From NCBI GenBank assembly GCA_038078735.1, contig JBBTTI010000040.1, forward strand, positions 1-42,512: a stretch of DNA of 42,512 nucleotides, in the 5' to 3' direction. The position numbers were made by a program, and so were the translations under genes. The stretch is from Patescibacteria group bacterium. GTDB lineage: Bacteria; Patescibacteriota; Minisyncoccia; Minisyncoccales; CAZWNE01. Under the pieces are notes generated by a model. It was given only the letters and a program-made list of their open reading frames with translations. It was not told the DNA's origin and did no database searches. Shown here in pieces: positions 2,585 to 39,057 of this stretch (position 1 is the stretch's first letter; each line of letters starts with the position of its first letter).

Positions 2585-3286
2585 ATGCCAATTAAGCGAC
2601 CACAATTAGTTAATAACGAAATTTACCATATTGTAATCAGGGGAGCAGGAGATTCATTAATTTTTAAAAATGAAGACGATCGTTATCGTGCGATTTTTTC
2701 TCTTTATGAATTTAATACTAAGGGTTCAATAGAAATTAGAGAGCAGAGAAAAAAGCGTAAAATAATTAAAGCCTCCGGAGAACCGTTCTCCGATAATCGC
2801 AAACTATTAGTGGAAATTTGGGCTTTTTGGTTTATGTCAAATCACATCCATTTACTTTTAAAGCAGAAAAAAGATGGGGGGATCTCAGAATTTGTAAAAA
2901 AATTTGGCGCAGGTTATGTTGGTTATTTTAATAAAAAACACAATAGAAAAGGTCCTCTTTTTGCAAAATTTAGAGCAGTTCACATTAAAGATGATAAGCA
3001 GTTAATAACAGTCTTTGTTTATATTCATACTAATGGCATATCTTTAATAGAATCTAAATGGAAAGAGAGGGGGATTAGCAACCCCAAAAAAGTAATTGAA
3101 TTTTTAGAAAATTATAAATGGTCAAGCTTCCAAGATTATATAGGAAAAAAGAATTTTCCTTCGGTAACCAGTAGGGAGTTTTTATTGAACATAATGGGCG
3201 GCGAAAAGGGTTGTAAGGAAATTATTGATGATTTTGTAAGATATAAAAAAACTTTTAAGGGTTTCGATGAGGTTATTTTAGAATAA
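2585..3286 (+). mobile_element. REP-associated tyrosine transposase (RAYT, IS200/Y1 HUH family)
   Basis: Motifs YHIVIRG, MSNHIHLL (HUH), YFNKKH.RKG.LF, YIHTN and YKWSS. Flanked on both sides by the same palindrome. Confidence 0.85.
2776..2792. repeat. REP-like palindrome copy 2 (in-frame inside RAYT, SGEPFSD)
   Basis: Exact 17-mer match. Confidence 0.85.
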
Positions 3287-30926: not shown

Positions 30927-32537
30927 TTACCTTACTGGCAATTTAATATAAAATACACTCCCCTTCCCCCTACCTTTGCTTTCTGCCCAGATTTTACCAT
31001 TATGCATTTCAATAAATTTTTTAGCAATATAAAGACCTAAACCTGCGCCTTCGGCTGAAAGTTTACGGCCAGCCGACCCCCGGGTGAAGCTTCTAAATAC
31101 TTTAGATATTTCTTCTCTTGTCATCCCTTCGCCGGTATCAGACACGGCAATTTCTAATTTCAAATTTTCCCTGCCTGCCGGCAAGGCAGGAATTTCCAAT
31201 TTTATAGTTATTCCGCCATTACTGGTGTATTTTATAGCATTATCAATTAAATTCAATATCACTTGTCTCATCTTGTCTCCATCAATTAAAATTTTAGGCA
31301 AGGCGGTTTTTGGTTTTTCAAATTTCAAATAAAGGCCCTTTTCTTTAACAATATTTTTCAGTTCATCAACCACGCTGGCAATTATATCTTCAACCGAAAT
31401 ATTTTCCATTTTAATTTCCATCCTTCCCGCTTCAATCCGGGAAATGCTCAATAAATCATTTACCAGTTTTATTAATCTTTCATTGGAAAGACCCATATTT
31501 GTAACTGCTTTGATAATACTTTCAGGAATTTCTCCGTAGGTCTTATCTAAAATCATTGAAATGTAGCCCTTAATCGCCGTTAACGGCGCTCTTAACTGGT
31601 GCGAAGCAATAGAAATAAACTCCGACTTGGCATTATCTAATTTTTTTAATTCAGCGTAAGCCCCTTTTAGTTCATCAGTTAGTTCCTCCATTTCCTGCCG
31701 CCTTCTTATCTCATTTATCACACTTTTAATCAGCAGGTAGCCGAAAATAATAAAAGCGAATAAAAGCGACCCTTTCCAAATATATTCAAACGACGATTGA
31801 GAGGTAAAAATATTAATAAAGAGCAGAATTATTATAATTCCAACGAGCAATTCCGTAAGAACAATTTTTATGTTAAATAATTTTTTTCTAACGATAGCAT
31901 AGGCAATCATTCCTATATATATCGCCACAGACCAATTACCGGCTGGTGGGACAGGAATGTTATACCACAAAAAATAATTTGTTGAACCGCCCAGAAAAGC
32001 AATAAAAGTTCCCCAAAAGACATAGAGAATCTGGTCTTTGAGTATGCCGGTTGCTTTTTTGGAAGCAGAAAGAAGCAAATACCAACTATAAAACGTATAT
32101 AAGAAAAATATTAAAAGGAATATATGAAAAACAATACCCGGTTCCGGCCAAAAAGGAAAAAAAAGTTTTGGAGAAGTACTCTTGATAAAATACGGTGTAA
32201 AAAAATTAAAAAAAAGGAAAATAAACGCAGAAATATAACCGAACCAAAGAAACGATTTTATCTTTTTAGTTAAATCTAATAATGAAGCTATAAAATGGAA
32301 ATAAAAAATTGGCACAAAAACTGCTCCGGCCATAAGCATCCGGAGCCAAAAAAGAGCAGCATTTTGTTCAGGTGCTAAATGCCAAAAAAAATATCCGGTA
32401 CTCCAAAAAGCAACGCTGAACGCGAATAACCCAAAGTATTTGTTGGTATTAGATCTGCGATTCTGAAAATATACAAAAGTTCCAAGAATAATACTTGTTA
32501 CGGTATTGACAATAGAAGAAATTAAATAAAATAACAT
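30927..32537 (-). CDS. Sensor histidine kinase with multi-TM (HisKA_7TM-like) N-terminus
   Basis: Hydrophobic N-terminal half, ASHQLRAPL (H-box), NLIDNAIKY, DTG.G and G.GLGL. Confidence 0.93.
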   Translation of the reverse strand: MLFYLISSIVNTVTSIILGTFVYFQNRRSNTNKYFGLFAFSVAFWSTGYFFWHLAPEQNAALFWLRMLMAGAVFVPIFYFHFIASLLDLTKKIKSFLWFGYISAFIFLFFNFFTPYFIKSTSPKLFFPFWPEPGIVFHIFLLIFFLYTFYSWYLLLSASKKATGILKDQILYVFWGTFIAFLGGSTNYFLWYNIPVPPAGNWSVAIYIGMIAYAIVRKKLFNIKIVLTELLVGIIIILLFINIFTSQSSFEYIWKGSLLFAFIIFGYLLIKSVINEIRRRQEMEELTDELKGAYAELKKLDNAKSEFISIASHQLRAPLTAIKGYISMILDKTYGEIPESIIKAVTNMGLSNERLIKLVNDLLSISRIEAGRMEIKMENISVEDIIASVVDELKNIVKEKGLYLKFEKPKTALPKILIDGDKMRQVILNLIDNAIKYTSNGGITIKLEIPALPAGRENLKLEIAVSDTGEGMTREEISKVFRSFTRGSAGRKLSAEGAGLGLYIAKKFIEMHNGKIWAESKGRGKGSVFYIKLPVR

Positions 32538-32573
32538 AAAAATAAATAAAAAGCCTCAACAAAGATTAGTATA

Positions 32574-33536
32574 TTATACCATCTCGGTTGAGGCCTTACA
32601 ACTTGTGGCTAAAGCTATGTGAAAGATAGAATGAGGTTCTGAAATTATCCGACAGTCTTCAAACCCCCCAGCACGAACGAGACCTTCTAAGTGTTTAGGT
32701 CTTCTGTGCTTCATTCTCCAATCAATTACGTGGTATAGAAACCAACGCTCAGGGTTGTTGCCGATACTGTTAGTTAAAAAAATCCCTCCTGGCCGAAGGA
32801 CAGAATACACGGATTCTATAAGTCTTACGGCCGTTCTGTCGGAAACATATTCCAGAAATCCAACCATTTCCACGGCATCAAAAGGCAAGTGGCCGTTAAG
32901 GGTTTTTTTGAGACGGAATAAATCTCTTATATTTCCCTGAATAGTGGTGACCTGTTCCTCTACTCCGTACTTTTGCGCTAATTCTTTGCTGTGAATTAAT
33001 GCTTCCTGATTATTATCAACAAGTACTGCCCGGACTTTTATACCCCTTTCTTTAAGAAAGGCAAGGGTTTCTATTATGCCTTGAGCTGATCCGCTTGCTA
33101 ATGAAAGAATGCTACCTCCCTGCCCACAAGTATTAAATTTTTGCGCTAAAAGGTACTTGATAAGAAGCAATCTGTTTCGGACAGCTTGGGCATTCATCAT
33201 ACCTATCCAGAAATCGCTAACCCACCCTTCAATGCCTTGAATACTTCCAAAATGATGATTATAAACAACATCAAGTCCCTTCCAGTTAGTTGCCTCATCT
33301 TTAATTTTCCGGCACGATCGGCTGGCGCCGTCAAATAAATATGTATTAGTCTTCAACTTTCGGCCAAATAATCCCAGCAACATTTTTTTTGCTACTACCC
33401 AAATAATAAGTAGCCACATTACTGGAAGGCTAAGGAGATACGGCCATTTTATTTTTTCATATGTAGGCTCGGGAATTTCTAAAACCAAAGGAGGATTTAT
33501 TTCTCCAGTGGTCTCTCGTCTTAATGTGTCAACCAT
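32574..33536 (-). CDS. Class I SAM-dependent methyltransferase
   Basis: ILSLASGSA, LVD, FD.V..VG..EY and VLRPGG. AGGAGG RBS. Confidence 0.85.
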   Translation of the reverse strand: MVDTLRRETTGEINPPLVLEIPEPTYEKIKWPYLLSLPVMWLLIIWVVAKKMLLGLFGRKLKTNTYLFDGASRSCRKIKDEATNWKGLDVVYNHHFGSIQGIEGWVSDFWIGMMNAQAVRNRLLLIKYLLAQKFNTCGQGGSILSLASGSAQGIIETLAFLKERGIKVRAVLVDNNQEALIHSKELAQKYGVEEQVTTIQGNIRDLFRLKKTLNGHLPFDAVEMVGFLEYVSDRTAVRLIESVYSVLRPGGIFLTNSIGNNPERWFLYHVIDWRMKHRRPKHLEGLVRAGGFEDCRIISEPHSIFHIALATSCKASTEMV

Positions 33537-33643
33537 TGTATAATCCTCCTTTCTATTCAGTATTTTTGGGGTATTCAGTTTAAGCCGGAAAAATTCCGGT
33601 GACTAATTTAAGTATTCCAAAAAATAAACAATCTGTCAAATAA

Positions 33644-33684
33644 TAGTGTGCGACACTGTAGTGTGCGACACTGAGTGTCGCACA
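33644..33684. repeat. Tandem 15-mer plus palindrome
   Basis: TAGTGTGCGACACTG twice, and TGTGCGACACT-G-AGTGTCGCACA (33662-33684). Confidence 0.75.
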
Positions 33685-33839
33685 TCTCACATATGCCCTC
33701 AGATTACCTAGAAAAGTGCAATATGTCTGTATACATTACCTCGAGTACTTGACAAGGGGCTTTAGTGGTGGCAGAGTTAAAACAGATTAGAATCACAATT
33801 AAATATAGGAATAGAAAAAATTCTAAAAAGGAGGACTAA

Positions 33840-34805
33840 ATGGACAATAGAATACATCCACTAGTGACCGTCTATGGTATGGAAAATAACAATGGGGTGG
33901 AGTTCCTGTTTCCTGGGCGCACCGTCACGATTGAAGGCGGGAAAGAAACGCTTCTTTTCCTTCTCCGACAGTGCACCGGGTATCGCACCGCAGAAGAGAT
34001 TGCGTCTGCGGTCTGTGAACAGACCGGACACAACAAGGAAGAAGTATGGGAAGTAATGGAAGAGTTACTGGCGCGCCATATTTTGGTGGACGCCAATCGC
34101 TACTATCTCCTTTTTCATATGGCTTCAGAAAACCCTATGCCTTTCTTGAGGGAGCTTTCCGAGGAAGACACAACAAGGATGTTGAGGGAAGGAGAAAGTC
34201 CTTTGGTTCCGTTTCCCTCTTCACGCTACACTGCCCTAGAACAACTACTTGAAAAACGCGAATCGGTTCGGCAGTTCAGTGGCGAGCCACTTTCGTTCGA
34301 CGAACTTAGCCGTCTTGCATGGGCCGTGTATGGAAGGATAAAAAGAAGCGAAAAATTCCCAGAGAGTTCCATAGGACTTGGTACTGTTCCTTCCGGTGGA
34401 GCAATGTATCCGCTCCGACTTTTCGTCTTAGATAGGAAAGGTCCCTCAGGCTGGATGGTTTATATTGGATATCCTAAGGGACTTCAAGTAAGGAGCCTTG
34501 TTTCAAAACAACAAGCTATTCATGCCCTTGGGGAAGATTCTATTCTGGAAGGTGCGGCGGCGGTGTACATACTTACCTGCGATTTCCAGCGGATAATCCA
34601 GAAATATGGGAATCGAGGGTACCGTTTCGCTCTGCTCGAAGCAGGGCACGCCGCCCAAAACGCATATCTTTGGTGTGCAGAACAAAATCTTGGAGTGGTG
34701 GAAGTAGGGGGTTTTTTAGACGAGGAACTCGCCAACCTTCTTTTGCTTTCCTACCCAAGGCAGGCTCCGCTTACTGCACTTATAATCGGAAGGAGGAAAT
34801 CGTAG
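33840..34805 (+). CDS. SagB/ThcOx-family FMN-dependent azoline dehydrogenase with N-terminal RRE-like domain
   Basis: RESVRQF, PSGGAMYP, KYG.RGYRFALLEAGH.AQN and GGF.D. N-terminal LL..CTG.RT.EEI...L......L winged-helix pattern. Confidence 0.9.
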   Translation: MDNRIHPLVTVYGMENNNGVEFLFPGRTVTIEGGKETLLFLLRQCTGYRTAEEIASAVCEQTGHNKEEVWEVMEELLARHILVDANRYYLLFHMASENPMPFLRELSEEDTTRMLREGESPLVPFPSSRYTALEQLLEKRESVRQFSGEPLSFDELSRLAWAVYGRIKRSEKFPESSIGLGTVPSGGAMYPLRLFVLDRKGPSGWMVYIGYPKGLQVRSLVSKQQAIHALGEDSILEGAAAVYILTCDFQRIIQKYGNRGYRFALLEAGHAAQNAYLWCAEQNLGVVEVGGFLDEELANLLLLSYPRQAPLTALIIGRRKS

Positions 34806-36322
34806 TGAGAATACAACTCAACGAAAACTGGAGGGTGAGGCCGACACAAGACGGTCTTGAATTAATGGCTCCAGAACATAATATTACACTAGAGTTGTCT
34901 GATCTTGTATTTCGGGATGAGATAGAGGCTGTTCTTGTTGGAAATGCAGAAATTCCCGTGGATAACAAGGTTATAGAAGAAACTCTACAGCTATTGAAGA
35001 ACATAGGAGCGATCTCTGCACAAGAGGGGTTTACTCGCCAAAACCCATCATCAACCAAAAGAGAAGAAGCGGCATGGAGAATTCGAAGGGATTTTGTGGG
35101 ACCACGCGGCCCAATTATGAGCGTGTACTGGCTTAATCCTAGCCAGTCCAAACTATCTCTCTCTCGGACTCACTTATTCACGGCAAAATACCGTGAGAGG
35201 ACAGGACATGGCGAAGAGATGCGGGAAGCATGGGCTTCAGGCAGTGACGCTGATTGGGGACAAGCCGAGTTTAAGGCAATTATGGAGGCATTGGAGCGCC
35301 ACGCATGCGGAATTATCCCACAAGAACAACTCGTAAGGAGCACTGCTCGTAAGCTTAAAAATCAAGCTCTCGATCCTCGGAGGATAGTAGTTTATACAAA
35401 AGCACAGTATAAGAATAATCTACCTTTCGTCCCGTTTTCCAAAGATCGGGAATACTGGTGGAAATCAGTAAAGGTATCACCAGAAGGCTATGAAAAGTAT
35501 GTGCCCATAGAATGTCTTTACTACCCTGCAGGGCACGAACTCTCACATAACCTTTATACTGCAGCGAACTCATCTGGGGTGGCGGCAGGACTGACTTTTG
35601 AAGATGCACTTCTGAGGGGAATCTATGAAGCAATTGAACGGGACGCATTCATGATTACATGGTTAATTCGCGCAAGCATGCCACTTATCGACCAACGGAC
35701 AATTTCAGAAGAATGTCGGGAGCGGGTGTATTCCCTAGAGTCACTCGGATACCGTATGTACTTTGTGGATATTACTCTTGAACTCGCCCCCGTAGTGCTC
35801 GCAGTCGGAGTGAGCGAGAAAGTGAGGCCATCCTTGGTCATCGGTGCCGCTTCGAATCCTGATATAGAAAAGGCTGTTGAAAAATCCCTGAGCGAAGTCG
35901 AGCACCAACTCTACTGGGAATGGAGGGACCCAGAAAACATACATAGCATTTCCGACCCAACAGAGGTAAACAAGATCCCTGATCACACAGCCCTCTATGC
36001 CTCTTCCGAGCACCTCTCAAAAGCTGTGTTCCTCTGGGGTGGAGAGACACGGCCCATGAACAAGTCAAACTTCGGCATCCAAGATACGTCGGCGGTCATG
36101 GAGAAACTCAAACAACACGGGTTCCAAACCGCGGTACTCGACCTTACCCCGGAATACCTGAAAAAGACAGGGGTGTATGTAGTACGAGTCATTCCTCTCG
36201 GGCTTATTCCCATTTCGTTTGGATATGGGATGGAACCGCTAGGGATGGCACGGTATACGCAAATGGCTAAACGGGGCAATCCTTGGCCAGGACCAGTACC
36301 TTTTCCACATCCATTCTCATAG
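34805..36322 (+). CDS. YcaO-family cyclodehydratase (azoline-forming type)
   Basis: EALER, NSSGVAAG, EAIERDA and a Pro-rich C-terminus PWPGPVPFPHPFS. GTG 34805 overlaps the upstream TAG and follows AGGAGG. Confidence 0.92.
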   Translation: MRIQLNENWRVRPTQDGLELMAPEHNITLELSDLVFRDEIEAVLVGNAEIPVDNKVIEETLQLLKNIGAISAQEGFTRQNPSSTKREEAAWRIRRDFVGPRGPIMSVYWLNPSQSKLSLSRTHLFTAKYRERTGHGEEMREAWASGSDADWGQAEFKAIMEALERHACGIIPQEQLVRSTARKLKNQALDPRRIVVYTKAQYKNNLPFVPFSKDREYWWKSVKVSPEGYEKYVPIECLYYPAGHELSHNLYTAANSSGVAAGLTFEDALLRGIYEAIERDAFMITWLIRASMPLIDQRTISEECRERVYSLESLGYRMYFVDITLELAPVVLAVGVSEKVRPSLVIGAASNPDIEKAVEKSLSEVEHQLYWEWRDPENIHSISDPTEVNKIPDHTALYASSEHLSKAVFLWGGETRPMNKSNFGIQDTSAVMEKLKQHGFQTAVLDLTPEYLKKTGVYVVRVIPLGLIPISFGYGMEPLGMARYTQMAKRGNPWPGPVPFPHPFS

Positions 36323-36346
36323 TACTTCGTTAGGGCCACCTTTTTC

Positions 36347-36375
36347 TTGACAATTTCACCTGAATTTACTACGAT
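36347..36375 (+). promoter_or_regulatory. Sigma70-like promoter of candidate precursor
   Basis: TTGACA-17 nt-TACGAT. Confidence 0.7.
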
Positions 36376-36406
36376 AAAAATATCTTGAAAGAAAGGAGGT
36401 GATAAT

Positions 36407-36508
36407 ATGTCTGGATTGAAGATCGTTATTACGGAGCGTAGGCTAACGGACGAGCTGACCAAAGGCGATCACCGTGACTGCGCAGGTGGCAGTCATTGCA
36501 ACAGATAA
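36407..36508 (+). CDS. Candidate RiPP precursor peptide MSGLKIVITERRLTDELTKGDHRDCAGGSHCNR (33 aa)
   Basis: AAGGAGGTGA RBS 4 nt before ATG, promoter upstream and terminator downstream. Cys/Ser-containing C-terminus; directly follows ycaO. Confidence 0.8.
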   Translation: MSGLKIVITERRLTDELTKGDHRDCAGGSHCNR

Positions 36509-36540
36509 CAAAAAAGAGTTGCAAATATGACGTCGCCAAA

Positions 36541-36577
36541 GGGACTGAGTGGCACAAAGCTATTCAGTCCCCTTTTT
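36541..36577 (+). terminator. Rho-independent terminator after precursor
   Basis: GGGACTGAGTGGC/GCTATTCAGTCCC stem (two G-U pairs) followed by CTTTTT. Confidence 0.7.
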
Positions 36578-36680
36578 ATATCTTCGCAAGATTTAACAAA
36601 GACTATATCAGTAGATATGCTATTCTTGATTATGTAGACCCAGCTCTTTAGTAAATAAATAATCTCCGAGGAGGGTAGTA

Positions 36681-37493
36681 GTGAAAACCATAAGAGGAAA
36701 GTTTAACACGGTTCAATTCATTGATGCACAATCCGTCCAAAAAGTTGCTATTGATCAAAAAGTTGCTCTCCCATCGCGTCTGAAGATAGAAGCTTGGGCA
36801 CTTTCTTTTGCCAAGAAGAACAGAATTAATGTTCCTCGCGTGCTGAAGTATTATCTTAATTCGCTGGGCCAAGAAGTATTGGTCACAGAAAGAATCAATG
36901 GAGAAACTCTGTCACCCAAAGAATGTCAAAAACATCCTCAATATTTGGAAGATATAGGAAACCAGATGGCTCTTCTGGGGCAAGTTTCGTCGGGCTATGG
37001 ATGGATTGATCCTGTAACTGGCTTTGGATGTCATAAAACTTGGCCATCATTTTTAGAGTGTCTCGTTTGGGAATATGGGAGTGAACTTGTCCACCTACAT
37101 TTGATTGAGGATAAACTCTTAGTTCGCATACAAGATGCGATCAAAAAGACGAATTTATTTTGTCAGCCACCGTTCCTTCTCCACCGTGATCTTAGACCCG
37201 CCAACTTTTTAAGGGATCGCGAAGGAAAGATTTGGATTATTGATTGGGAACGCGCTATCCTAGGAGATCCACTCTACGACATCGCAATGGTAGGGGTTCG
37301 GCATGGTCATGGTATCTTCTGGGAGGGTCTACGAAAGGGGTACAATCTCAGCATTTCTCCTTGGGTGTACACTCTTTATGAAGTTATAGTTCTTCTAGGA
37401 ACTGCTGACTTTTACCGTCAAGTTAGTCCCAAGTATCAAAATGAACTCAAAATCACGCTCAAAGAGTTACACCAATTAGTACAAAACATATAG
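36681..37493 (+). CDS. Aminoglycoside phosphotransferase/choline kinase-family protein
   Basis: VPRV, LLHRDLRPANF, IIDWE and GDPLYD. GAGG-type RBS before GTG. Confidence 0.88.
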   Translation: MKTIRGKFNTVQFIDAQSVQKVAIDQKVALPSRLKIEAWALSFAKKNRINVPRVLKYYLNSLGQEVLVTERINGETLSPKECQKHPQYLEDIGNQMALLGQVSSGYGWIDPVTGFGCHKTWPSFLECLVWEYGSELVHLHLIEDKLLVRIQDAIKKTNLFCQPPFLLHRDLRPANFLRDREGKIWIIDWERAILGDPLYDIAMVGVRHGHGIFWEGLRKGYNLSISPWVYTLYEVIVLLGTADFYRQVSPKYQNELKITLKELHQLVQNI

Positions 37494-37498
37494 CAAGG

Positions 37499-38809
37499 CT
37501 AAGTAAAACCCTTAGCCTTTTTTCTTAGATCTTTATAAAAAAGATATGTGCCATTTAAAATAACTCCTTTAATAGAACGAATATTAGAAATATTTTTAAG
37601 CGGGTTCTTTCTTAAAAGCACAAGATTTGCAATTTTTCCTTCTTCAATTGTCCCAAAATCTAAAAGAGCATCAAGAGATAGCGCTGCATTGTATGTCGCT
37701 GCCTCCAATGCTTGATATGACTTTAATCCGGAATCAACAAGAAGCTCTAATTCCTCTAAAAGCGACACACCCGGAATCACAAATGGATTAGGGGTGTCAG
37801 ATCCCGCAAGAATATTACTATGCTTTTGTAGAAAAGGAAGAATATGCCGAGTCCTTTCACAATAAAGGCAAAAATTTTCCCACCAGAGAGGAGGACGACC
37901 TTTAATATTGGCTGAACTCTTGGGGTGATTTGGATTCCACTTGATTTCTCTGTAATATTTAGGAAGAAGTCGAGCTTCTTTGCTCTGTTTAAGTTTAGAA
38001 TAATCTGCCAGTTGGGACATTTTTTTATCTACAACAAGAGTAGGACATAAGAATACATTATTTCGTTCCAAGAGCGAACCCAGCTTCTCCAATTTTCTTT
38101 TATCTATTTTTACATCAACGAATTTCCTCCATCCCGGGTAATTTTTTAGGTTAGCGTTTACAGAAACGATCTTACTGATATAATTGCGCATACTACTCAT
38201 ATGCTCAAATCCGCCCTGACCCATTTTTATAGCTTTCATAATACTGATTGATTTTGGGAGATGTCCGGTTACTTTCAAGCCACGCTTACAAGCTTCCTTA
38301 AGAATCGCCTCATACACTTCTGGTTTGAGGGTTTGATATACCTTAATAAAATCTACTCCTTGCCGCTTCAGTTCGCTTACGGCAATCCTGCCTTCTTTTT
38401 TATTTCGCACTATCCGGAATCCTTTCCAAAATGGAGGATCTCCTTCCAATATCGGCCCGCATATATACATTCGAGGGCCAAGTACCTTCCCAGAATTTAC
38501 TTTATCCCTCAAGGAAAATATTTCTTTCTTGTAACTTCCTGTTTCTCTAATAGCTGTAATACCATATCGAAGAAAAAGAGAGAGCCATGTTTGTGAATGC
38601 AAGTGCACATGCATATCAAAAAGTCCGGGAATAAGAAATTTCCCCTTTCCATTAATGATGCGTCCTGCGAATTTATCGGTTTCCTGTTTTCGAGAAGGAA
38701 AAATCCGTTTGATTCGCGCCCCTTCAATAACCATATTGTAGCCATGCAATACGCGAGAACCTGGCATGGGAATAATATTAACGTTTTTAATAAGGACAGA
38801 TGATACCAT
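37499..38809 (-). CDS. Metal-dependent amidohydrolase
   Basis: PGL.DMHVH, KVY, GH, EH, AGSD, GTIE.GK.A.LV.L..NPL. Confidence 0.9.
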   Translation of the reverse strand: MVSSVLIKNVNIIPMPGSRVLHGYNMVIEGARIKRIFPSRKQETDKFAGRIINGKGKFLIPGLFDMHVHLHSQTWLSLFLRYGITAIRETGSYKKEIFSLRDKVNSGKVLGPRMYICGPILEGDPPFWKGFRIVRNKKEGRIAVSELKRQGVDFIKVYQTLKPEVYEAILKEACKRGLKVTGHLPKSISIMKAIKMGQGGFEHMSSMRNYISKIVSVNANLKNYPGWRKFVDVKIDKRKLEKLGSLLERNNVFLCPTLVVDKKMSQLADYSKLKQSKEARLLPKYYREIKWNPNHPKSSANIKGRPPLWWENFCLYCERTRHILPFLQKHSNILAGSDTPNPFVIPGVSLLEELELLVDSGLKSYQALEAATYNAALSLDALLDFGTIEEGKIANLVLLRKNPLKNISNIRSIKGVILNGTYLFYKDLRKKAKGFT

Positions 38810-39057
38810 ACAGCTTATTTTAACTCCTATTCCAATTTTAATCCATCACCTAAATTGTGCGAAGCTAAAATTGTGCGAAGCTAAGCTTACCATAAATTTT
38901 ACGACAAAAATTAATATTTTATTTTCTAAATTAATCTTAATAAATATCTTTGTTTTTTAAAGAAAAGGCGATGAAACTCTGTTTCATCTTCACCCTTCGC
39001 TTATCAAGCGCCAGCGAAGATTAAGAAGAGATTTATCTCTTCGCTTCGCTCGGGTAC

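Follow-up and report, generated by a model that had tools for sequence, protein, structure and literature searches.

A 33-codon gene beside a YcaO cyclodehydratase in a Patescibacteria genome, a probable precursor of a linear azole-containing peptide pathway

A 42,512-nucleotide stretch of DNA from a member of the Patescibacteria (contig JBBTTI010000040.1), the whole of which is referred to here as the window, carries on its forward strand an open reading frame (ORF) of 33 codons at positions 36407..36508, including the TAA stop codon, and we find that this ORF very probably encodes the precursor of a linear azole-containing peptide (LAP) pathway. Its translation is MSGLKIVITERRLTDELTKGDHRDCAGGSHCNR (33 aa), a product that is present in exact form in the protein collection as the window's own entry (P0002), and no paralogue other than the ORF itself was found in its own genome, which is 706 kb in length and 99% complete. 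The gene lies directly downstream, and on the same strand, of the genes for a SagB-type flavin mononucleotide (FMN) dehydrogenase and a YcaO cyclodehydratase, the latter ending 85 nt before the ATG of the peptide. Evidence for the assignment includes codon analysis, an alignment of the peptide's family (A6), and one relative, P0025.

A scan of genome and metagenome collections for YcaO led to 145 loci being fetched, only three of which hold close homologues of the window's enzyme: L067 (97% protein identity), L002 (72%), and L003 (55%). The remaining loci lie at or below 37% identity, mostly at 24-31%. A small peptide that combines the leader MxxLxIxVTExxLxDE with a variable, Cys-containing C-terminus is encoded at each of the three close loci; the peptides of L067 (52 aa) and L003 (55 aa) are encoded directly after ycaO, and that of L002 (47 aa) after an amidohydrolase gene. 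The initial annotation had named a lack of amino acid conservation near homologous ycaO genes as the result that would speak against a peptide gene, and what we observe, a leader shared at every one of these loci, is the opposite. Over leader codons 2–17 the proportion of synonymous differences (pS) is 0.58-0.97, that is, saturated or nearly so, against 0.14-0.35 for non-synonymous differences (pN), and dN/dS is 0.06-0.14 in the three of six pairs for which it was computable over these 16 codons. Two Arg codons, for example, are written CGT AGG, AGG CGA, and AGA CGG in different members. At the level of the codons, then, the leader carries what appears to be the signature of a translated and selected peptide.

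A profile of the four peptides with a known locus (those of the window, L067, L002, and L003) was searched against 1,835,955,588 representative proteins and returned ten hits at the threshold of E ≤ 0.001, nine of them peptides of 33-60 aa that match from residue 1 or 2; the tenth, a 1726-aa protein, was rejected as spurious. The resulting family alignment has 12 members, the four above and eight from the profile search (P0020-P0027). Residues M1, L4, I6, T9, E10, L13, D15, and E16 are invariant in it, V8 and R12 are nearly so, and the rest are variable, while a Cys is found in the otherwise variable core of every member. The stretch LKIVITE, which had been put forward from the sequence as part of a leader, lies inside this conserved block, with its L4, I6, T9, and E10 among the residues invariant in all 12. 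Curated precursor families of peptides made on the ribosome and modified after translation (RiPPs), such as NHLP, Nif11, and heterocycloanthracin, are among the leader models of Pfam and NCBIfam. The profiles of these two databases assigned the window peptide to no family and gave only single stray matches among the 12 members (best E 0.01 for NCBIfam and 0.28 for Pfam), and a word-based search with a three-peptide alignment brought up no peptides other than that of L002 and the window's own.

The shared leader also bears on a quite different reading of the region, according to which the small ORF and the hairpin behind it form a cis-regulatory leader (attenuator) of a downstream kinase gene, or else a chance ORF or a small RNA. 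The kinase gene does follow the ORF and its terminator on the same strand, at a distance of about 170 nt, and expression signals are no more frequent in this neighbourhood than expected by chance. Against this, the same leader peptide is present in L067, L002, and L003, all of which lack the kinase, and its amino acids are conserved while the synonymous sites are saturated; the kinase gene has a Shine-Dalgarno (SD) sequence of its own, GAGGAGGG, ahead of its GTG start; and a search of Rfam with positions 36250-36750 gave no match at E ≤ 1. The attenuator, small-RNA, and chance-ORF readings were rejected on these grounds, and we consider it extremely improbable that any of them is right.

As a precursor gene the ORF comes with a full set of putative expression signals. 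A sigma-70-type promoter, TTGACA-17-TACGAT (36347..36375, forward strand, 10/12 matches), is followed by the SD sequence AAGGAGGTGA (36393..36402, forward strand), with 7 nt from its AAGGAGG to the ATG at 36407, and the gene is closed by an intrinsic terminator at 36541..36577 (forward strand), in which a hairpin of 13 pairs (36541-36571), seven of them G-C, runs into CTTTTTATAT. Promoter, SD sequence, start codon, and hairpin terminator had all been reported in the initial annotation, and direct reading together with a scan of the analysed gene neighbourhood (33400-37600) finds each of them in place, the promoter being the joint best of that scan. The same neighbourhood holds eight promoter-like sites, compared with 6.6 ± 2.7 in shuffled sequences, and five terminator-like sites, compared with 3.6 ± 1.9; neither count is above chance, and the expression signals alone therefore cannot carry the case. 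The AAGGAGG motif, which also stands 5' of sagB (33828) and ycaO (34790), is enriched in the window, with 14 occurrences compared with 6.25 ± 2.54 and none of 100 shuffles reaching 14.

What raises the unit above chance is conservation, of the leader amino acids on the one hand and of the promoter, SD sequence, and terminator pairing on the other. The promoter and SD sequence are nearly identical in L067, with a single base of the promoter, in its spacer, differing, and are recognisable in L002, where a TTGACA promoter stands ahead of the peptide gene. The sequence AAAGGAGG also precedes the peptide ORF in L067, L002, and L003, and a hairpin with a T-run is found 3' of each. The window's hairpin is homologous to those of L067 and L002, the stem being kept in all three, and 4 of 15 pairs are maintained among these three sequences by changes on both sides.

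Five of the 12 family members go on with (P/T)KG after DEL or DEP, with conservation reaching to about K19-G20, and the leader can be placed at roughly residues 1–17, or 1–20 when the last residues are included (MSGLKIVITERRLTDEL-TKG), with DHRDCAGGSHCNR as the core. Of the two cleavage sites considered in advance, after KG and after AGG, the former fits this limit of conservation better, judging from the alignment. Downstream of KG the window peptide has two Cys and one Ser, as had been noted from the sequence and as direct reading bears out, and the earlier remark that such a core is unlike the classic Cys/Ser-dense ones proves true within its own family: ten of the 12 members (47-60 aa) have cores rich in Cys, Ser, and Gly, of the microcin B17 kind, and the short His/Asp/Arg/Cys core is limited to the window peptide and P0025.

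A core of this kind invites the suggestion that the ORF derives, by decay or truncation, from a precursor that was once longer and rich in Cys/Ser/Gly, and that its product, still expressed or expressible, is no longer a productive substrate. At 33 aa it is of the shortest type in the family and has two Cys where others have more, the near-identical strain represented by L067 has a 52-aa Cys-rich precursor at the same place, and the hairpin that follows ycaO in L067 is present in the window without its 5' arm. The relative P0025 (33 aa) tells a different story. It shares with the window peptide the core KGDHRDCxxGSHCNR, the length, and the C-terminus, and of 33 residues 25 are identical, six of the differences falling in residues 1–17 and only two (positions 26 and 27) in residues 18–33, a pattern that points to purifying selection on the core. 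That the short core is kept in a diverged lineage argues against decay, as do the intact promoter, SD sequence, and terminator and the element RDCxG.S that the core has in common with the L002 peptide, and we judge a decayed allele to be improbable.

The two enzymes upstream are those expected for azole formation in a LAP precursor. The dehydrogenase gene (33840..34805, forward strand, 321 aa) matches PF00881 with E 3.6e-21 over residues 138-317 and is only just over the cut-off of the SagB model TIGR03605 (78.8 bits vs 78.4), and the cyclodehydratase gene (34805..36322, forward strand, 505 aa) matches PF02624 with E 1.8e-55 and exceeds the cut-off of the SagD model TIGR03604 (226.9 bits vs 219.25), its start at 34805 being backed by the AAGGAGG at 34790 and by the starts of its homologues. 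A low probability is given to the reading that the peptide is a YcaO substrate but that the chemistry is not that of azoles, the product being a thioamide, an amidine, or azolines left unoxidised. YcaOs that work without an E1-like partner are known from the bottromycin pathway (PMC10885120), the amidohydrolase of the cluster resembles the bottromycin one, and no E1-like partner was found in the genome. On the other side, the YcaO is over the SagD cut-off and far under that of the McrA-thioamidation model TIGR03266 (76 bits vs 365), the SagB dehydrogenase is translationally coupled to the YcaO, and a search of the window's genome for TfuA (PF07812) gave no matches although the control was matched in Methanosarcina. 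A proline-rich C-terminus is typical of azoline-forming YcaOs, and the C-terminal tail PVPFPHPFS of the window's enzyme would fit it.

The search for an E1-like partner was made with TIGR03882, which had no matches in the window's own genome; its control matched in 6 of 14 genomes, in none of them over the cut-off. Domain scans of the neighbouring genes likewise found neither an E1-like nor an Ocin-ThiF-like domain. The YcaO itself may supply the leader-binding function, since its N-terminal part resembles in fold the RiPP recognition elements (RREs) and no separate E1-like partner was found. In a low-confidence model of its N-terminal 150 residues, built from a four-sequence alignment, approximately residues 1–75 resemble leader-binding RRE domains at the level of the fold: the top three of 48,161 chains compared are RRE domains solved together with leaders (6jx3, 5v1u, and 8t19, with Z 8.3, 7.7, and 7.5 respectively), with an rmsd of 2.2-2.7 over 69-71 residues. 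Of the first 22 rows of this structural comparison 13 are RiPP enzymes, LynD and ThcOx included, and in a Foldseek search the first 21 rows are RRE-bearing RiPP enzymes (best E 0.025). A complex prediction of YcaO residues 1–80 with the peptide, run without controls, gave a score of 0.07 and a mark of 0.32 and speaks neither for nor against binding.

The dehydrogenase has an N-terminal extension of about 137 residues that is modelled as a winged-helix type, three strands followed by three helices (beta3-alpha3). RRE entries appear among its structural matches at ranks 22 and 27 in Foldseek and at ranks 9 and 45 in VIA (Z 5.3 and 4.4), and compared by sequence with solved structures neither enzyme's N-terminal domain gave anything meaningful (best E 0.22 and 1.1). 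RRE fusions on LAP dehydrogenases have been described, as possibly vestigial (PMC7470986). We also considered whether this extension is specially variable, using an alignment of 17 homologues, for which P0005 (the window's own product with a later start) and the short P0018 and P0019 were taken out of a set of 17 hits and the L002 and L003 proteins were added. With a mean entropy of 0.79 bits vs 0.62 bits and with 27 of 137 positions invariant, compared with 72 of 184 in the rest of the protein, it is only modestly so, and the argument was dropped.

Several points, besides the signal counts given above, weigh against reading the ORF as a LAP precursor. Translation of the 33-aa peptide and its modification are steps that we infer, and among 13 sequencing runs listed no RNA data set containing the sequence was found. 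Only four of the 12 family members have a known genomic context, and as the window and L067 are near-identical strains, adjacency rests on three independent lineages. The core of the window peptide, with its two Cys and one Ser and far shorter than in ten of the 12 members, would be an atypical substrate for its few Cys/Ser and its short length. The model of the YcaO N-domain has a mean predicted local distance difference test score (pLDDT) of 48.5, with blocks of 57-71 in residues 1–70, that of the SagB N-domain a mean of 55.6 and only generic winged-helix matches, and no Foldseek match to either N-domain reaches E 0.001. The search with the Ocin-ThiF-like model TIGR03693, finally, is uninformative, having given no matches in the window's own genome and a control that matched nothing anywhere.

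The gene arrangement itself is not an assembly artefact, as contigs of three runs cover at least 36365-38900. Among public contigs that show no difference from the window, one spans 33700-38900 and is possibly the window's own source, and two further ones are identical over 36287-38900 and 36365-38900, one of these coming from a sample that carries no flag as a potential source.

The comparison with L067 indicates that the precursor has been exchanged between close strains. The two loci are 95% identical in DNA over 2670 nt, and the identity ends at 36399, the last base of AAGGAGG, beyond which L067 has another precursor with a related leader and a Cys-rich core (52 aa). Within the aligned part the differences are unevenly spread: in SagB they lie in codons 2-202 (22 non-synonymous and 27 synonymous-only), followed by one synonymous change, and in YcaO they lie in codons 25-67 (15 non-synonymous and 14 synonymous-only), the next difference not coming before codon 502. 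Such a distribution is that of a recombination mosaic. A fourth run of the same study has the L067-type junction at 36399 and a diverged tract at 34936-35005. Where sequence has been exchanged, it falls on the precursor and on the N-terminal regions of the two enzymes, which suggests, from a single allele pair, that leader and binding domain may be co-adapted. The alleles differ in one further respect. L067 has a perfect 8-pair hairpin with a T-run between ycaO and the peptide promoter (2573-2612), and the corresponding region of the window (36323-36346), 13 bases shorter, lacks the 5' arm of this hairpin, in agreement with 13 additional bases seen in a public contig, so that read-through from the enzyme operon into the precursor gene would be possible in the window.

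Behind the precursor gene lies a kinase of the APH family (36681..37493, forward strand, 270 aa), with intact HRDLRPAN and IIDWE motifs and a match to PF01636 at E 1.5e-18. Among solved structures it is closest to hygromycin-B 4-O-kinase (E 3.4e-8). It was not found in L067, L002, or L003, nor in 39 of the 40 relatives searched (two genomes of the same genus and 38 of the same order), the remaining one giving a weak partial match, and a role of this kinase in tailoring or self-protection of the window allele is speculative. In the kinase's place L067 has an ORF (2928-3266) that contains an HEFSH (HExxH) motif, matches nothing in Pfam, and runs off the end of the contig; its product may be a metalloprotease standing in for the window allele's kinase. 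Next in the window, on the reverse strand, is a metallohydrolase of the amidohydrolase superfamily (37499..38809, 436 aa, HVH motif; PF01979 E 3.4e-21), which is 56% identical to the copy in L002, is present in L003 as well, and matches the bottromycin amidohydrolase 6i5s with E 7.6e-17 over residues 58-429. By analogy with that enzyme it is the best candidate for a peptide-trimming step.

Taken together, these components allow a pathway to be proposed for the LAP precursor. Transcription of the precursor gene would be driven by a strong promoter of its own and translation by its consensus SD sequence, the signals themselves being present in the DNA. The leader MxxLxIxVTExxLxDE would be held by the RRE-like domain of YcaO and perhaps also by the winged-helix domain of SagB, whereupon YcaO, as is usual in its family, would cyclodehydrate Cys25 and Cys31, and possibly Ser29, to azolines, which SagB would oxidise to azoles. 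The amidohydrolase would then trim the peptide, in the simplest case by cutting off the leader near K19-G20, and the predicted product is a cationic molecule of about 13 residues that contains two thiazoles as well as two histidines.

A bolder version of this proposal, to which we give some credence though we think it unlikely, is that the core KGDHRDCxxGSHCNR defines a separate chemotype. In this reading a mini-peptide some 13 residues long would either have a metal-binding site made up of two thiazoles (or two free Cys) and two His or be phosphorylated on Ser29 or Thr18 by the APH-type kinase that accompanies this allele alone; a metal-binding or signalling role, as suggested in the initial annotation, is hypothetical. 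Matched sets of a precursor, a kinase or HExxH accessory gene, and a leader-facing RRE-like tract would be swapped by recombination between otherwise identical groundwater strains. If this were true, a genome-reduced episymbiont could switch the molecule that it makes by exchanging matched sets.

The distribution of the cluster sets it apart from the genome around it. The GC content is 0.47-0.48 at 34-36 kb compared with about 0.36 nearby, and searches with protein queries found none of the YcaO, kinase, and amidohydrolase in the two genomes from its own genus. Searches of the 38 genomes of its order gave one distant match for the YcaO (31% identity), the weak partial match for the kinase, and none for the amidohydrolase, and no close YcaO (E ≤ 1e-60) was found in any of 400 other sampled genomes of the phylum. 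This near-absence among relatives and in the phylum gives the cluster the appearance of a rare island, acquired horizontally, that measures about 5 kb within a reduced genome of about 0.7 Mb. The distant YcaO among the 40 relatives belongs to a 739-aa open frame (L148; G013:C30:7090-8187, reverse strand), which may be a fused cyclodehydratase of another LAP type.

Three observations concern the left edge of the island. At 33700-33741 other contigs (8467, 2935, and 3922 nt, from three runs) match the window over these 42 bases only and continue into unrelated sequence, and the segment may represent a short repeat or a shared element on the margin of the high-GC island, possibly its boundary. 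At 33644-33684, in the divergent intergenic region between sagB and a methyltransferase gene on the reverse strand, two tandem copies of TAGTGTGCGACACTG are followed by the inverted AGTGTCGCACA, the 11-nt arms being 100% complementary; this operator-like array is possibly a binding site for a regulator of the cluster. To the left of the island, at 30927-33536 on the reverse strand, are a histidine kinase with an N-terminal seven-transmembrane domain (PF16927) and this methyltransferase, which is of class I and has a predicted membrane segment, and for which L002 shows no counterpart at that position.

Biosynthetic genes are very scarce in bacteria of the candidate phyla radiation, and to our knowledge no peptide natural product of theirs has been characterised. 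Here the locus offers what would be a complete and compact pathway, with two enzymes, a hydrolase, and a 33-residue substrate, and it defines a precursor family of 12 members. If the scheme is confirmed, a cyclodehydratase that has its own leader-binding domain and no E1-like partner would be a minimal architecture useful for peptide engineering. The pair of alleles, 95% identical in DNA and differing in the precursor, the gene behind it, and short putative leader-binding tracts, amounts to a natural experiment on leader recognition, and the core, atypical in its His/Asp/Cys content and kept in a second lineage, hints at a role different from the usual targeting of gyrase or the ribosome.

LAP clusters that combine a YcaO with a nitroreductase and a peptidase were reported from candidate phyla radiation genomes by Sharrar et al. 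2020 (mBio, PMC7298704), who describe 110 LAP clusters in 93 further genomes, with a nitroreductase adjoining ycaO in 89, and clusters of this kind are therefore already known from the radiation. The window's cluster is like those described there in its minimal YcaO, adjacent nitroreductase-type dehydrogenase and hydrolase, in the small precursor beside ycaO, and in the reduced genome, and it is unlike them in the length of the precursor, the one described in that report having 84 residues where the window's has 33. Our literature searches on YcaO in the candidate phyla radiation or Saccharibacteria found no other description among the papers listed, and one on RiPP precursors in Patescibacteria turned up survey papers.

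Beyond the radiation, three systems share parts of the arrangement. Microcin B17 with McbBCD (PDB 6gos) is similar in combining a YcaO with an FMN dehydrogenase, in binding the leader through an RRE fold, and in the Gly/Ser/Cys-rich cores of ten of the 12 family members. It differs in that McbBCD needs the E1-like scaffold McbB, whereas here none was found and an RRE-like domain is fused to the YcaO, and in that the window's own core is not Gly/Ser/Cys-rich. The cyanobactin enzymes LynD/TruD and ThcOx (PDB 4v1t, 4bs9, and 5lq4), which turn up when the YcaO N-domain is compared by fold (4v1t at Z 6.1 and 5lq4 at Z 6.7), likewise have an N-terminal RRE fused to YcaO and RRE-like domains on the FMN oxidase. 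LynD and TruD have an E1-like middle domain, and at about 750 residues they are larger than the window's YcaO of 505, which has only about 145 residues ahead of its YcaO domain; nor are a cyanobactin protease or macrocyclase found here. In the bottromycin pathway (PurAH/BotAH, PDB 6i5s) an enzyme of the amidohydrolase superfamily is likewise encoded with YcaO enzymes, and PurAH removes the follower peptide (PMC10885120). There, however, the precursors have a follower and no leader and SagB oxidation to azoles does not occur, and the similarity in sequence between the window's amidohydrolase and 6i5s is too low to claim a shared specificity. Compared with the literature seen, the leader family, the very short His/Asp/Cys core, and the conservation of that core are new, although the 110 clusters of PMC7298704 may include members of the family; so too are the combination of a YcaO that bears an RRE-like domain and lacks an E1-like partner with a bottromycin-type amidohydrolase, and the exchange, at the level of alleles, of precursor, accessory gene, and N-domain tracts.

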